A stretch of 64,000 bases of DNA, taken from positions 1,056,001 to 1,120,000 of the forward strand of contig CBDIIB010000004.1 in the NCBI GenBank assembly GCA_965279525.1, written 5' to 3'. The notes beneath the pieces are model-generated. The model did not search any database. It saw nothing but the letters and a program-made list of their open reading frames with translations, and had not been told where the DNA came from. A program made the translations under genes and the position numbers. This document shows, piece after piece, positions 3,965 through 54,642 of the stretch; position 1 is the stretch's first letter, and each line of letters begins with the position of its first letter. The stretch is from Tagaea sp. Lineage in GTDB: Bacteria > Pseudomonadota > Alphaproteobacteria > CACIAM-22H2.

Positions 3965-4970
3965 CTAGTCGACCGGCGCCAGCGGCCCGGCCGTCAACCG
4001 GTCGACTTCGTACCAGGACTTCATCCGCATCCAGTCCCACGGCACGTCTGCGGGATCGAGGACGAGCGCGCATCCGCGACAGTCGATCAGGTACGCCACT
4101 TCATTCCCCCGGATCGCGGGCGCGATGTTCGATTTCGGCAGGGCGTCCGCCGAAACCGTTTCCGTGAGCGTGAATGTCAGGCGCATGGGTGCGTCGACCC
4201 GATAGATCTTGCGCCATTGCCGGCTGTATCTGGCACCGAGGAAATGCTGGTACGACGACAGCCCGAGCTCCAAGCCGCCGGCTTCGACATCCCCGGCCTG
4301 TCCGTCGATCCGGCCGATTTCCACGACGGCCGGCAGCACGATCGCGATGTCGAGCGGCGCACCGGCCCTCGCATGCAGCAGGGTCGCAAGCTGGTCGTAG
4401 AAGCCGAATGCCGGCTTCTCCTTCAGTGCCACCCGCTCGACCGGTGCGCCGGCGCGCGTTCGTTCCTGCGCCTCCTCGAAGGACAGCAGGCGTCCGCCGT
4501 GCCCGGAAGGCCACGCCGAAAAACGGATCGAGGAATATCCCGCGCGGGCCGATGGCGACGGCCAGCGCGCTATGCCCGCCGTTTGAAAGGCCGACAAGAT
4601 CGAACTGCCGGCTCGCGAGGTTCTCGGAGCGCAACAGGAAGGCCAGCATGGCGGCCGCGGCGTCGCACTCCCCCTTGCGCAGGAAAAGCTCGATCGCCCC
4701 GCGCGGCACCCGCATGAATTCCGGCAGGTGACGGTGCGACAGAAACGGCGTGATGCGCCGGATCCACGGATCTTCGCCGGCCGTCCATTGACCGGCGGAC
4801 CAGCGCGCAAGTGCAAACGCCTTCTCTTCGTCGTCCAGGCCGGCCGCACCCGCCTGCACCACCACATCGCGCGCGGCCCGGCCGGCGACGATTTCCACGA
4901 CAAGGCGCGGCAGGGCGGCCAGAAGCGCCAGACCTGCAAACAGCGCGACCGCTCGCGTGACGTTCTTCAC
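3965..4970 (-). CDS. Membrane-anchored transglutaminase-like protein; one frameshift near 4503
   Basis: GTG 4970 with GGGGAG RBS and a hydrophobic N-terminus. GECDAAAAMLAFLL...GHSAL...FLDPFFG gives a Cys-His-Asp pattern. Removing one G joins it to the frame ending at 3965. Confidence 0.6.
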
Positions 4971-5045
4971 TTCCGACTCCCCATCCCCTTGGCGACATCC
5001 TAGGGAACGCGGTCCGTCCGGAATACGTGCTATGATCGTATTACT

Positions 5046-5140
5046 TACATATGTATTTATAGTTGTATTTAGTCCTTCACCGGGATATAAGTCCAGCATT
5101 GGCCGAAACCATCCGGCCATGCGCTGTTTGAACCGGTGAA
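5046..5140 (+). promoter_or_regulatory. Leader of dispersed element copy 1: sigma70-like promoter, hairpin and boxA-like site
   Basis: TTGTAT (5063-5068)-N17-TATAAG (5086-5091); hairpin TGGCCG/CGGCCA 5100-5119; GCTGTTTGAA 5123-5132. All conserved in copy 2. Confidence 0.6.
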
Positions 5141-5156
5141 TATGGAACGGCAGCCA

Positions 5157-5403
5157 GCCGCAAGGTTTGGTTGACGGCGTGCGATTTCCGTCAACGTCAA
5201 CTGGCTTTCGTGGAAAATCAAGGGCATGGCCTGTTGACGGTCAACGCCCGTCAACTTCCGTCAACGACCCGCGTCAACTTCCGTCAACACGGCCGCAAGA
5301 ATGACGAGACATGCGCATGTGACGTCGCATGTCGCATCGGTTTCGTGGCGGATCAACGGGTTGGACAGGAGACGGTAACATGACGTCTCCTCGTGTCTCG
5401 TCA
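5157..5403. repeat. Two tandem palindromic units (135-bp period): unit A with GTTGACGG/CCGTCAAC arms, unit B with TGACGAGAC/GTCTCGTCA-type arms
   Basis: Nine GTTGAC/GTCAAC hexamers in 5170-5288. GCCGCAAG at 5157 and 5292; TTTCGTGG-N3-ATCAA at 5206 and 5341. Confidence 0.8.
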
Positions 5404-5507
5404 CCCTCACCCCGCAACGTATACGTTGCGCCTCTCCCGCAGGCGGGAGAGGGGACGCACCGGTCGAGTCCCCTCTCCCCTCCGGGGAGAGGGTTAGGGT
5501 GAGGGGG
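5404..5507. repeat. REP-like palindrome doublet (CCCTCACCC...CCTCTCCC-loop-GGGAGAGGG, two inverted copies)
   Basis: Hairpins at 5431-5452 and 5471-5493, just after the mrcA stop; homologous doublet at 54539-54635. Confidence 0.85.
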
Positions 5508-5513
5508 ACGGTC

Positions 5514-7933
5514 CTAATAAATCCCGTCGCTCGTCTCGCCGCCTTGCGTGGAAATTCCCTGCAGCGGCGACGTGAACTGCCCTGCCCCGTCGAGCACCTG
5601 CTGGTCGGCGCGCACTTCGGTGCCGGGCTTGAAGGCTTCCCAGATCGCGTCGCGTTCGCCGGGGCGTGCGGGGGCCCCGCTCTGCGGGTTGACGCGCACG
5701 AGCCGGATGCCCGGCGGCGTGCGGAACGGCACCACCGGCGTGCCCTGCAGCACTTCGGCCATCACGTCGCGGAAGATGGGCACCGCGACCGAAGAGCCGG
5801 TCTCGTTGGGCCCCAGCGTGCGCGGCGCGTCGAACCCGACCCACACGCCGACCGCAAGGTCGGGCGAGAAGCCCAGGAACCACGCATCGAACGAATCGTT
5901 CGTGGTCCCCGTCTTGCCGCCGAGCGGACGGTTGAGGTCGCGCAGGCGGCGCGCGGTGCCGCGTTCGACCACGCCCTGCAGCATCGACACCATCTGGAAG
6001 GCGCTGAGCGGATCGACCGCCTGCGCGCGCATGTCGGGCAGTTCGGGCGGTGCCGAGTCCGGCAGCCACACGTCGATGCGGCAGGCCTCGCAGGCGCGCG
6101 TGTCGTGGCGGAACACGGTGCGGCCCTCGCGGTCCTGCACGCGGTCGATCAGCGTGGGTTCGATGCGCTTGCCGCCATTGACGAACATCGCGTAGGCCGT
6201 GGTCATGCGCATCAACGTCGTCTCGCCCGCGCCCAGCGCCATCGCAAGGCTGGGTGCCAGCTTGTCGACCACGCCGAGCCGCTCGGCGCTCTCCGCGACC
6301 TTGTCCATGCCGACGGCCTGCGCCAGCCGGATCGTCATCAGGTTGCGCGACTGTTCGATGCCCACGCGCATCGGCGACGGCCCGTAGAAATTCCGCGAAT
6401 AGTTGGCCGGACGCCACGGCGGCAGGCCCGGCCCCTGGTCGACGACGATGGGCGCGTCGAGGATCAGGCTCGCCGGCGAGAAGTTGCTGTCGAGTGCGGG
6501 CAGATAGACGAACGGCTTGAACGACGAGCCGGGCTGGCGCTGGGCCTGCGTGGCGCGGTTGAACTGGGAAAGCTCGTAGCTCCACCCGCCGACGAGGGCG
6601 CGCACGCGCCCGGTGTGCGGGTCCATCGCGACCACGCCGCCGCCCACGTTGGGGATCTGGCGCAGGGCGAAGCGCTTCGCCGCCGCAAGCGGTTCGACCA
6701 GCACGATGTCGCCCACCGCCACGACGTCGGCGGGCACGCGCACGGCGGGGCCCACGCGCTGTTCCTTCTCGGTGCGCCGCGCCCAGCGCATCTCCTCGAC
6801 CGGCAACGCGCCCGTCGTGCCGTCGGCGAACGCGATCTCGGCGGCGTCGTTGGCAAGGGCTCGCACCAGCGCCAATTGCCATTCGGCGGCCGCACCGCCG
6901 GGCCGCGGATATGCCGCAAGCTGGCGGCGCCAGTCGGTAACACTGGCATCGATCCTTGCCGACCGGCCCGCGCCAGCCGTGGCGCCGGTCGTAGGCGAGC
7001 AGGCCCCGGCGCAGGGCCGCCTCGGCGGCCGCCTGGGTCTTGGGGTCCATCGTCGTACGCACGTTGAGCCCGCCGCGGAACAGGTCGCGCTCGCCGAAGC
7101 GCGCCAGCAGTTCGCGGCGCACCTCCTCGGCGAAATAGTCGGCGCGCACGGTGTCTTCGGGGCCGCGCTGGCGCGTGATGATCGGCGTCTGCGCGCGCGT
7201 TCTCGTAGTCGCCCGGCGTGATGTGGCCGTCTTCCAGCATGCGGCCCAGCACCCAGTCGCGCCGCTCGCGCGCGCGCTCCATGTAGCGGCGCGGGTCGTA
7301 GTTGTTGGGCGCTTTGGGGAGCACGGCGAGGAACGCGGCTTCGGCCAGCGACAGCTCGTCGAGCGAACGGTCGAAATAGTTGGTCGCGGCCGAAGCAACG
7401 CCATAGGCGCCGAAGCCCAGATAGATCTCGTTGAGATAGAGCTCGAGGATGCGCCGCTTGGAAAGCGACTCCTCGATGCGCAGCGCGAGGATCGCTTCCT
7501 TGGCCTTGCGCTCGAGCGACACCTCGTTGGTCAGCAGCATGTTCTTGGCGACCTGCTGCGTGATCGTCGATGCGCCCACCGGCCGGCGGGCGCCCAGGTT
7601 CGTGATGTTCTGGAAGGCCGCGCGCGCGATGTCGGGCAGGCTCACGCCGGGATGCGTGAAGAACGTCTTGTCTTCGGCCGCGAGGAACGCGTTGACCACA
7701 CGCCGCGGGATCGCGTCGAACGGCACGAAGGTGCGCCGCTCGATGGCGAACTCGGCAAGGATGCGCCCGTCGGCCGCGTGCACGCGCGTGGTGACCGATG
7801 TCTGGTAGGCGGCAAGCGTCTTGTGGTCGGGCAGGCCGCGGCCGAAATACCAGAAGCCGCCAAGCGTCGCCGCCGTCCCGCCGACGAGGCCGAGAAAAAT
7901 CAGAACGACAAGGGCGATGATCCCACGACGCAT
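5514..7933 (-). CDS. mrcA: Penicillin-binding protein 1A (class A PBP); two frameshifts near 7195 and 6954, probably sequencing errors
   Basis: Transglycosylase motifs AEDKTFFTHPG, GASTITQQVAKN, RKAKE and LYLNEIYLG; transpeptidase motifs SSFK, SRN and KTGT; spread over three consecutive frames; next to amiC. Confidence 0.92.
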
Positions 7934-52540: not shown

Positions 52541-53348
52541 ATGACCGTCACCGCCCCGGCAAGCGCCGGGGCGGCTGACGCGCATATCGAGATCGAAGGC
52601 CTGCGTCATGTGTTCCGGCGCGAGGAGAAGACCACGCATGCCATCGAGCGCGTGGACCTGAAAATTCCACGCGGCGAGTTCGTCGCGATCGTGGGCGCTT
52701 CCGGCTGCGGCAAGAGCACGCTCTTGAAGATCGTCGCCGGCCTGCTTTCGCACAGCGAAGGCTCGGTCAAGTTCGAAGGGCGCGAGGTGCGCGGCGCCCA
52801 GACCAATCTCGGCATCGTGTTCCAGAGCCCGGTGCTGCTCGAATGGCGCAACGTCATCGACAACGTGCTGATCCAGCTCGAGCTGCGCGACATCGACCCG
52901 AAACCCTTCCGCGCCCGCGCCGAGCAGCTGCTGCGCGACGTCGGGCCTCGGCGACTTCTTCGACCGGCTGCCGCGCGAGCTTTCCGGCGGCATGCGCCAG
53001 CGCGCGGCCATCGTGCGCGCCCTCATCCACGATCCGCCGCTGGTGATGATGGACGAGCCGTTCGGCGCGCTCGACGCGCTGACGCGCGAGCAGATGCGCA
53101 TCGACCTCGAGAAGCTGTGGCTCGCGCGCCGCCAGACGATGGTGTTCGTCACGCATTCCATCGGCGAGGCGGTGGCACTCGCCGACCGCGTCGTCGTCAT
53201 GACGCCGCGCCCGGGCAAGATCGACCGCATCGTGCCCATCGACCTGCCGCGCCCGCGCGACAAGGACACCATCGCGAGCAAGCGATTTTCCGAATATGTC
53301 GAGGAGATCACCGAGCGGTTCATGCGCCACGGCGTGATCCGCTACTGA
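52541..53348 (+). CDS. ABC transporter ATP-binding protein; frameshift near 52945
   Basis: GASGCGKST, LSGGMRQR, MDEPFGALD and FVTH, split by one extra G. Confidence 0.9.
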
Positions 53349-53361
53349 AGGAGTGTTTCCG

Positions 53362-54306
53362 ATGCTGAAGCGTCCGTTCACTGGCGTGATCGCCGCCCCG
53401 TTGCTGCCCATGCACGACGACCAATCGGTCGACTGGACCACGCTCGAGCGCTACATGGACTGGATCGCCGGTCAGAACCCGGCCGCCATCGCGATGAACA
53501 TGGATGCCTCGGAAGTGATCTCGCTGACCGAGGACGAACAGTTCGAGGTCGTGCGCGTGTGCCGGGCCGGCATCGGCGGCCGCGTGCCCTTCCTGTCGGG
53601 TATCGTCGCGGGCTCGACGGCGGCCGCGGCTGCCAAGGCCGTGAAGCTGCGCGATGCCGGCGTGGAAGGCTTCGCGATCTTCCCGCCCTTCCCCACGTTC
53701 AGCGGCGCACCCGTGCCCGAGCAGATGATCGTGCGCTACCACCGCGCGATCGCCGACGCCTCGGGCCTGCCGATCATCTGCTTCCAGTTCCCCAAGAACT
53801 GGGGCCCGGACTACACGCCCGAGATCCTGCGCGCCATCGCCGAGATCCCGCAGCTCGTCGCGATCAAGGAATCCTCGTTCGACGTGACGCAGACACTGTC
53901 CACCATCAGCGGTGCTGCCAATCTGAAGCGGCCCATCGGCGTGCTGACGGGCAGCGACACCTTCATCTTCGAGGCGATGGTGATGGGCTGCGACGGCGCC
54001 CTGATCGGCTTCGGCGGCACGGCCACCGCCGAACTCGTCGCCATGCACGCGGCCGTGAAGCGCGGCGACATCTCGGCCGGCAAGGCGATCTGGGACCGGC
54101 TCGGCCCGCTCGCCCGCTGGTGCTGGCGCCCGCCGATCCGCGACTTCCGCCCGCGCATGAAGGAAGCGCTGAAGCTCCAGGGCATCTTCCCGTCGGCCAT
54201 GTGCCGCGAGCCGCAGCTTGGCGTCGACGATGCCGACCGGCGCGAGATCGCCGCGATCCTGAAGACGGCCGGCATGCTGGGAACGGGCATGCGCAAGGCC
54301 GGATGA
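53362..54306 (+). CDS. DapA/NAL family class I aldolase-fold protein with an atypical active site
   Basis: FTGVIAA, AIKES (Schiff-base Lys), LTGSD and GCDGALIG; RBS AAGGAG. Confidence 0.85.
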   Translation: MLKRPFTGVIAAPLLPMHDDQSVDWTTLERYMDWIAGQNPAAIAMNMDASEVISLTEDEQFEVVRVCRAGIGGRVPFLSGIVAGSTAAAAAKAVKLRDAGVEGFAIFPPFPTFSGAPVPEQMIVRYHRAIADASGLPIICFQFPKNWGPDYTPEILRAIAEIPQLVAIKESSFDVTQTLSTISGAANLKRPIGVLTGSDTFIFEAMVMGCDGALIGFGGTATAELVAMHAAVKRGDISAGKAIWDRLGPLARWCWRPPIRDFRPRMKEALKLQGIFPSAMCREPQLGVDDADRREIAAILKTAGMLGTGMRKAG

Positions 54307-54523
54307 GTTGACGGGTGTTGACGGGGCGTTGACCGTCAACACGCATCCCGTTGGAATTGCTCGATAGCCAGTTGACGGCGACCGGATCTGCTTGACCGTC
54401 AACCAAACTTTGCGCCCGGCCGCTCCGCTTCACGATGTCAAACAGCGCACGGCCGGATGGTCTCGGCCGATGCGAGGACTCTAATCTGGATCAGGACTAA
54501 ATACAACTATAAATACTTATGTA
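54307..54523 (-). repeat. Dispersed element copy 2: promoter, hairpin, boxA-like site and one GTTGAC/GTCAAC unit
   Basis: Reverse complement aligns by eye with 5046-5265; 30 of the first 31 nt are identical; six GTTGAC/GTCAAC hexamers. Confidence 0.85.
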
Positions 54524-54538
54524 GGATCTCGCACAGAT

Positions 54539-54635
54539 ACCCTCACCCCTGCCCTCTCCCGCAAGCGGGAGAGGGGGACGTCAGCATCGGTGTGATCCCC
54601 TCTCCCGCTTTGCGGGAGAGGGTTAGGGTGAGGGT
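54539..54635. repeat. REP-like palindrome doublet
   Basis: ACCCTCACCCCTGCCCTCTCCCGCAAGCGGGAGAGGG plus an inverted partner ending GGGAGAGGGTTAGGGTGAGGGT; homologous to 5404-5507. Confidence 0.85.
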
Positions 54636-54642
54636 GAACGCT

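Follow-up and report, generated by a model that had tools for sequence, protein, structure and literature searches.

A family of boxA-led repeat cassettes with several arm-motif classes in part of one alphaproteobacterial genus

The window analysed here is a stretch of 64,000 nt from the genome of Tagaea sp. (97% complete, 66% G+C; genome G000 below), and coordinates given without a contig name are positions in it. Our subject is a 521-bp intergenic region of this window and, in particular, two repeat-rich modules within it, which we call units A and B. The region is a mosaic of a promoter-like module (P1), a hairpin followed by a boxA motif, unit A, unit B and an unrelated palindromic element (R), and it closes at the stop codon of a convergent gene for a class A penicillin-binding protein (PBP1A). 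The features of this region, with a second family member that lies elsewhere in the window, are the following.

5046..5094, plus strand: P1, an AT-rich, promoter-like module (TTGTAT at 5063-5068, a 17-nt spacer and TATAAG at 5086-5091; the palindrome TACATATGTA precedes)
5101..5118, plus strand: boxB-like hairpin, GGCCG-N8-CGGCC, directly 5' of boxA
5121..5140, plus strand: rRNA-type boxA, GCGCTGTTTGAACCGGTGAA, by motif match
5157..5291, plus strand: unit A, arm motif CGTCAAC/GTTGACG, from consensus alignments of related units
5216..5228, plus strand: core of unit A, AATCAAGGGCATG, one mismatch from the IHF consensus WATCAANNNNTTR
5292..5403, plus strand: unit B, arm motif CGTCTCC/GGAGACG, from its repeats and BLAST
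5351..5363, plus strand: core of unit B, GATCAACGGGTTG, one mismatch from the same consensus
5403..5510, no strand assigned: R, a nested palindrome of the CCCTCTCCCGC...GCGGGAGAGGG type, similar to repetitive extragenic palindromic (REP) elements and unrelated to the units; 23 BLAST matches
5514..7933, minus strand: convergent PBP1A gene (Pfam Transgly, PCB_OB and Transpeptidase)
54307..54523, minus strand: second family member, with P1, hairpin, boxA (54429-54448) and one A-type unit

Anatomy and kinship of units A and B

The two units share a scaffold and differ in their arms. The sequence GCCGCAAG occurs at 5157 and again at 5292, and a 36-nt block beginning TTTCGTGG, 72% identical between its two copies, occurs at 5206 and 5341; the offset is 135 bp in each case. 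Unit A carries nine hexamers (GTCAAC at 5190, 5196, 5240, 5250, 5260, 5273 and 5283; GTTGAC at 5170 and 5233). On its left side lies an inverted repeat, GTTGACGG (5170-5177) with CCGTCAAC (5188-5195), and an extra GTCAAC at 5196; on its right side the palindrome GTTGACGGTCAAC (5233-5245) is followed by four more direct CGTCAAC repeats at 5249-5288. Unit B is closed by a perfect 10-nt inverted repeat, TGACGAGACA (5302-5311) with TGTCTCGTCA (5394-5403), and contains an inner repeat, GACATGCG (5308-5315) with CGCATGTC (5326-5333), and a hairpin, AGGAGACG (5367-5374) with CGTCTCCT (5384-5391), whose loop opens with GTAAC. Its right-arm repeat is non-palindromic (GGAGACGGTAAC), yet the hairpin with a third copy is retained. 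A first-pass annotation of this DNA had described two units with a common scaffold at 135-bp offsets, nine hexamers in A, different arm motifs in B and cores one mismatch from the IHF consensus, and in each of these respects our coordinates and repeats agree with it.

Two adjacent units at a common offset might have arisen by local tandem duplication, or might resemble each other by chance, and within G000 the exact pattern GCCGCAAG-N35-47-TTTCGTGG is indeed found only at these two adjoining places in the window. When the 521-bp region was compared with 41 related genomes, it resolved into four independently matching parts: X (5046-5146), A (5157-5265), B (5291-5402) and R (5403-5506). BLAST within G000 returned 7 matches for X, which includes P1, 13 for A, 6 for B and 23 for R, each count including the query itself, and A and B are found there singly, as A-B and as B-A, with or without X. 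Homologues of A and B thus occur separately and in either order at many loci in several genomes, and unit B of the window is closer to a copy on another contig (C2:39230-39341, 90% identical, its closest relative in the genome) than to the unit A beside it. The dispersed homologues refute a local tandem array or duplication, and we hold the whole of this explanation to be highly improbable. The resemblance between A and B is likewise beyond chance, because homologous units recur. The restriction of the exact scaffold pattern to two places indicates instead that the scaffold is conserved as a profile and not letter for letter.

A dispersed cassette family headed by boxA

One member (P1-hairpin-boxA-A-B) of a multi-copy family contains units A and B as two of its modules; the family has about 30 loci per genome and is limited to part of one genus. 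The cassettes follow a common plan: a promoter-like module, an rRNA-type boxA and one to three modules of about 110-135 nt, ending a few bases from a convergent stop codon. Each module starts with CCGCAAR, followed by a left inverted hexamer repeat with an extra direct copy and by a central TCAA-N4-TTR core; on the right side an inverted copy of the motif precedes a series of two to six direct copies spaced at about 10 nt. The hexamer itself differs from one module class to another.

A scan of one genome per species with the exact right arm of unit A (GTTGACGGTCAAC-N3-4-CGTCAAC) gave 73 loci, 62 of them in a single group of related Rhodospirillales genomes, which are titled Tagaea sp., Rhodospirillales bacterium or 'uncultured Azospirillum' metagenome-assembled genome (MAG). 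The other 11 are single matches in unrelated phyla: Streptomyces (8), a Solirubrobacteraceae MAG, a Chloroflexia MAG and a Planctomycetaceae MAG. Alignment of the 62 units needs almost no gaps, and a second alignment was made of 45 of them with the window unit. The consensus reads ggCcGCAAg..TTGcTTGACGG, N10, CCGTCAACGTCAAC, about 13 nt, (G/A)ATCAAnGGGTTGGCnT, GTTGACGGTCAAC, N3-CGTCAAC and sometimes a second N3-CGTCAAC.

At least three arm classes are present in G000: CGTCAAC, CGTC[T/A/G]CC and a class with GTAACC/GTTGCA, here called class C. The last comprises 22 units in this genome, 18 of which have a boxA at most 330 nt upstream; matches to it at E of 1e-6 or better occur in 9 of the 21 genomes of the genus. 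In this class a left copy of GTTAC, GTAAC or GTTGCA is followed by the core TTCAA-N4-(T/A)TAAATA and then by GGTTAC(C/G)GTAACC-N3-GGTAACC. A fourth arm class, GTCGCG, occurs in some arrays of genome G003 with a period of about 11 nt, and other arrays of that genome mix GTCGCG, GTCGCC and GTAACC at a period of 10 nt. G003 has no A or B units and one weak class-C match, yet it carries 29 boxA motifs; the corresponding counts are 28 in G019, 7 in G010 (74% complete) and 1 each in G001 and G018. The first-pass annotation's notion of a constant scaffold with variable arms is therefore true of the whole family, with at least four arm motifs on one plan: the scaffold does occur with other arm types.

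Some units have terminal inverted repeats, CCGCAAGNNTTGCTTGACG...CGTCAAGCAANNCTTGCGG, for example a 19-nt pair at loci L033, L075 and L078. Unit A of the window lacks them, and unit B has the 10-nt closing repeat described above. Two further small modules accompany the cassettes. The first, CCATGCCGGCAGGTCGAGGCCGG, which forms a 5-bp hairpin, separates boxA from the first unit at about 10 of the 62 loci (L033, L035, L039, L042, L061, L062, L070, L075, L078 and L082). The second is a short hairpin repeat, GTCGTGGATGCCCGG-N-CCGGGCATCCACGAC (or ...CATGACGG), often paired and situated beside or inside cassettes, as at L097 (G012), L098 (G011), L042, L082 and C2:39460-39500 of G000; it interrupts a unit in G012.

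The link between the units and boxA is strict. The motif GYGCTSTTTGAH-N2-5-GTGAA has 25 matches in G000. Three belong to the rRNA operon, one upstream of 16S and two before 23S, the latter being the same sequence on two contig ends, one of which carries 23S, 5S and tRNA-Met. All 22 others lead units of the A/B or C classes. Of the 62 related loci, 43 have a boxA upstream in the same orientation, and none has one downstream or on the opposite strand. GYTCTTTAANA, the boxA consensus of gamma-proteobacteria given in PMC5725501, agrees with the motif at 10 of its 11 positions. We also observed that the 16S leader (C5:1864183-1864560 of G000) holds GTTCAAAGACTAAACGAG, which is similar to the class-C core CTTCAAAGGCTTAAATACG; between the cores and the rRNA operon no complementarity was found at up to 3 mismatches.

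Two types of module precede boxA. P1 is the type found in the window, where the hairpin follows it, and P2 consists of TTGACA-N17-TATATT with a T-rich tract upstream, matching the sigma-70 hexamers at 10-11 of 12 positions. Hexamer scores of at least 9 out of 12 were reached by 27 of 42 loci and by 3 of 42 shuffles. P1 is nearly invariant across four orthologous loci in four species and is AT-rich in a genome of high G+C, and its first 32 nt also stand about 45 nt upstream of an open reading frame (ORF) with a ribosome-binding site at 40.8 kb of contig C2; its near-invariance, its composition and its placement before an operon elsewhere all support P1 as a putative promoter. That operon (C2:39520-40830, minus strand) has two genes behind the 32 nt of P1, for a 160-aa protein with a predicted membrane anchor and for a protein of about 245 aa, and an A-B array lies downstream of it. 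The hairpin at 5101-5118 is kept in the four orthologues and at other P1-type loci; we call it boxB-like on a presumed analogy with the E. coli rrn leader.

Chromosomal position, inheritance and turnover

Convergent ORF ends lie just after the units at 17 of the 22 non-rRNA boxA loci, as judged with a crude GC3-filtered ORF caller that missed the PBP gene of the window, and by eye a convergent stop codon lies within 0-25 nt of most class-C tails. To judge by their translations, the genes next to the cassettes are functionally unrelated, with Pfam assignments for the ORFs of the window locus and for the genes at the two sites described below next to DHDPS and RNase J genes.

The arrangement P1-boxA-A-B is found at the PBP1A locus in four species (G000, G012, G007 and G011). 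The motif blocks are identical among these orthologues while the loops differ (CCGTCAACGTCAAC, for example, is identical at 14 of 14 positions and GCCGCAAGGTTTG.TTGACGG at 20 of 21), and the third-codon identity of the PBP gene is 0.80-0.88. Identical blocks in spite of such divergence indicate that the motif blocks are under constraint. The unit tail consists of 6 copies in G000, as against 3-4 in the other three genomes, and the locus in G012 includes an extra partial unit, interrupted by another REP type. In more distant congeners the PBP site is without the element and has other neighbours.

A second site shows that cassettes of different kinds can occupy one place. The cassette at 54307-54523 adjoins a DHDPS-family gene (53338-54306, plus strand; DHDPS domain) at its stop codon. 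The corresponding site holds P1-boxA-A in G000 and G012, P2-boxA-B-A in G017, G011 and G007, and P1-boxA-class C in G016, G014 and G010; by genome, cassettes of A or A+B type are found in six related genomes and class-C cassettes in three. One chromosomal site thus holds different arm classes in different species, which bears out the variable arm motifs described in the first-pass annotation. In G019 the site is empty, with the convergent stop codons 10 nt apart and no target-site duplication. At the 3' end of the RNase J gene, similarly, G003 and G005 have a boxA-led class-C unit and G000 an A-type unit without boxA. Among copy pairs within G000 the highest identity is 90%, and none reaches 95%. 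Stable sites, differing cassettes and this ceiling of identity together indicate that cassettes turn over, with no sign of recent transposition. We note that at the empty site of G019 (L187) a stop codon and the following CGG read GTGACGG, which resembles an arm motif, and that the PBP stop in G010 (L100) reads TGACGG; these letters may be due to chance or may hint at how units are gained and lost.

Such a pattern invites comparison with bacterial repeat elements. In E. coli, bacterial interspersed mosaic elements (BIMEs) are mosaics of REP sequences, and the BIME-1 or RIP-RIB elements have a central IHF site. Like these, the cassettes are extragenic mosaics of palindromic units and linker motifs with an IHF-consensus motif between inverted units, they lie at gene 3' ends and between convergent genes, and species-specific versions are found at the same sites. 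They differ in occupying about 30 loci per genome as against hundreds, in having units of 110-135 nt with phased direct repeats and a head made up of a promoter-like module and boxA, and in belonging to a genome without a RAYT (Y1) transposase: PF01797 had no match in G000, with positive controls in 6 of 14 genomes. The true REP-like element, R, adjoins the array as a separate insertion. The Correia elements of Neisseria (NEMIS, CREE) are about 100-150 bp long and have terminal inverted repeats, a central IHF site and promoter activity, and they are transcribed into neighbouring RNA. Unit size, the terminal inverted repeats present in some units, the central IHF-like site and the promoter-like module are points of similarity; the cassettes differ in that no TA target duplication was seen, and in their phased internal hexamers, the boxA ahead of them, their several arm classes and their conserved positions between species. 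We found no description of such cassettes in the literature (supplements not covered). Literature searches by motif gave no match for the 13-mer among the matches listed, those for the 8-mer being primers and the like, and searches by genus name gave no title on repeats among the matches listed.

These comparisons raise the possibility that the family is a selfish or relic mosaic repeat, akin to REP/BIME sequences or to miniature inverted-repeat transposable elements, which spread early into the gaps between convergent genes and now changes by drift, slippage and recombination, its promoter and boxA being hitch-hiking copies of an rRNA leader without present function. The modular composition would fit such a history, as would the terminal inverted repeats of some units, the location between convergent genes, the patchy distribution in the genus apparent from the boxA counts (29, 28 and 7 against 1 and 1), the empty DHDPS site in G019 with species-differing cassettes elsewhere at that site, and the variable number of tail copies among orthologues. 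We nevertheless think it improbable. Motif blocks at orthologous loci are conserved far beyond neutral sites, the best copy pair is too diverged for recent transposition, neither a target-site duplication nor a Y1/RAYT transposase was seen, and the family has only about 30 loci per genome with promoter and boxA intact at nearly all of them.

R itself is a separate, later insertion beside the array. The PBP1A stop codon lies 3 nt past it. G007 and G011 lack it at their orthologous loci, and in a contig from a near-identical strain 5399 is connected to 5518 by 29 other letters, with X-A-B kept and R lacking; over 4400-5399 that contig differs from the window by 20 differences and 2 gaps. The nested palindrome family to which R belongs (CCCTCACCC...CCTCTCCCGC-N-GCGGGAGAGG...) is found at 5403-5510, at 54553-54637 and at many further places in the genome; palindromes of this type also occur in other families of the class and are polymorphic between near-identical strains. 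As to the genes on either side, PBP1A is read in two overlapping frames (5514-6875 and 6464-7933), and the divergent gene to the left of the array (3965-5240, minus strand), which has no Pfam match, shifts frame near 4500. Compared with the window, the contig of the near-identical strain lacks a single base at 4499 and another at 4979, and the frame changes in both genes may be assembly indels or real frameshifts.

Possible readings: transcribed RNA or nucleoprotein site

A promoter-like module and boxA, which the first-pass annotation had overlooked, head the arrays in fixed orientation, and this points to a transcribed element. BoxA serves to carry RNA polymerase through untranslated RNA. 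We favour, with about even confidence, the reading that the units are modules of a modular, structured, Rho-resistant non-coding RNA, and the strongest single clue in its favour is the obligate, orientation-fixed link to the promoter-like module and boxA. The cassette would be transcribed from its own promoter, and NusB/NusE would load at boxA and render RNA polymerase Rho-resistant, as in rRNA operons, so that untranslated, C-rich module RNA could be made at full length. The arm motifs would then act as hairpin stems, and the ends CCGCAAR...YTTGCGG would close a module where both exist, while the core and the repeated copies on the 3' side would stay accessible to a sequence-specific partner. 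Modules would grow by slippage and be swapped between loci.

Some properties of the units accord with structured RNA. The stems vary by class (GTTGACGG/CCGTCAAC, GGAGACG/CGTCTCC, GTGACGG/CCGTCAC, GGTTACC/GGTAACC) while the plan and the loop opening GT(C)AAC are constant across classes. The direct repeats, which are tails of repeated CCGTCAAC-N2-3, are C-rich and G-poor on the plus strand; RNA of this composition would be prone to Rho, which may be the reason for boxA. In the combination of a promoter, a boxA near the start and long, untranslated, repetitive RNA that is a target for Rho, the cassettes resemble boxA-led rRNA operons (PMC5725501) and the CRISPR arrays that are reported to have boxA in the leader, and the boxA of the cassettes is the same motif as in the rRNA leader of G000. 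They are unlike those units in containing no rRNA, tRNA, CRISPR repeats or cas genes, and in being short and ending at a convergent stop without a canonical terminator.

Several related ideas were dropped. The units do not appear to be a type of terminator for antiterminated polymerase, as the rRNA operon closes with a canonical hairpin and T-run; a NusG paralogue confined to carrier genomes was rejected, two NusG-family genes being present in 5 of 5 genomes tested; and small ORFs through the units have unconserved start codons (ATG, GTG, CTG). An extended helix between the left extra copy and the palindrome was unsupported in an alignment checked by eye. The asymmetry between G:U pairs and A:C mismatches was uninformative (168 against 128 in a count that includes unrelated hairpins; 3 G:T and 0 A:C in 39 units only). 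One RNA library, X18, has short contigs of low depth over 5044-5207, which includes the putative promoter, and over 5273-5378; DNA carry-over could produce these, and they are no evidence of transcription either way.

A number of observations weigh against a structured RNA. No helix was proven by covariation. When the 5' end of a unit was paired with the segment before the core, cognate partners showed no advantage over non-cognate partners (-10.7 against -10.3 kcal/mol, p=0.19), and the same was true of the class-C 'Pc' helix (4.14 against 4.16 pairs). Stems within one class are conserved as sequence, the variable stem position in class-B left arms is often unpaired (by eye), and the second stem pair of class C is mismatched in 6 of 12 listed cases. 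Plus-strand folding energy is unremarkable (z -1.7), and the minus strand folds better (z -3.3). No credible Rfam match was obtained with an E limit of 10 in the window region and of 1 in 31 related loci, the best hits being microRNA models on palindromes. As regards transcription, P1 of the window is a weak sigma-70 match (8 of 12), a simple consensus promoter scan called no promoter in 4800-5700, P1 included, and no terminator was found after the modules at the window locus.

Two further observations on this side are those that would be expected of DNA. The core matches the IHF consensus far above chance: at a fixed offset, 39 of 62 units have at most one mismatch to WATCAANNNNTTR (none in 9, one in 30), compared with 8 of 1240 shuffles, the 62 units being homologous and hence non-independent, and in 59 of 62 the core lies 16-17 nt before the palindrome. 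The IHF-like core noted in the first-pass annotation is thus, as a predicted site, a property of the entire family. The tail repeats, moreover, keep a fixed period, as expected of phased DNA sites and not of RNA: beyond the interval fixed by the search, the spacing is 10 nt in 27 of 39 cases, 11 nt in 9, 12 nt in 2 and 13 nt in 1.

These features would be accounted for if the hexamers were phased sites for one or more DNA-binding proteins and an IHF bend brought the arms together, transcription serving to modulate or expose the complex, an explanation that comes close to the first-pass annotation and that we regard as possible, if rather unlikely. Arms around an IHF bend are the layout of attP arms, P1 parS, transposon ends and oriT. 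G000 has four HU/IHF-family genes (PF00216), the repeats run at the pitch of the DNA helix (about 11 nt in the GTCGCG class), the centre of the 13-bp palindrome is free to be C or G, and the distances between arms are almost free of indels. The motifs are conserved as sequence, in direct and inverted orientation and at constant period, even where GTCGCG, GTCGCC and GTAACC share one array. Against this, a nucleoprotein site has no need of a promoter and boxA, yet all 22 non-rRNA boxA loci carry units and the orientation rule is without exception. It would also call for four or more cognate specificities, and no candidate protein emerged.

The likeness to attP arms, P1 parS and iteron origins, in short direct and inverted repeats at helical spacing flanking an IHF consensus, had led the first-pass annotation to suggest an iteron origin, recombination arm or packaging site connected with mobile elements. 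The genomic context does not bear this out. Among 15 ORFs flanking the window locus, which code for PBP, TPR or DEAD helicase domains or have no domain, there is no rep, integrase, terminase or transposase domain, and unlike those systems the units have no adjoining integrase, ParB or Rep gene. A blastn search in distant mode against 72,556 plasmids returned no match. Copies are scattered over the chromosome and passed on at fixed sites, with boxA preceding them.

A variant that cuts across the RNA and DNA readings, and to which we attach little probability, is that the cassettes are a host-encoded, highly transcribed element protected by Nus factors and boxA, either as RNA or as transcribed DNA, whose fast-switching arms would serve as decoys or sponges that capture sequence-specific nucleic-acid-binding proteins, such as proteins encoded by phages, plasmids or transposons. 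If this were true, an arms race would explain the change of arm class between sister species at the same sites, the cassette-like exchange of modules and the jump in copy number from one to about thirty within the genus.

For annotation, the family serves as a warning: arrays of this kind, although iteron-like, should not be taken for origins or packaging sites. The turnover of cassettes at the same site between sister species is an unusual mode of intergenic evolution, and a design in which four or more arm motifs can replace one another around a core resembling an IHF site is a natural experiment on selection at the RNA level as against the DNA level. If the cassettes are transcribed as their heads suggest, each genome would hold about 30 boxA-led non-coding genes without an Rfam counterpart, and antitermination by Nus factors would reach well past rRNA in this alphaproteobacterial lineage.

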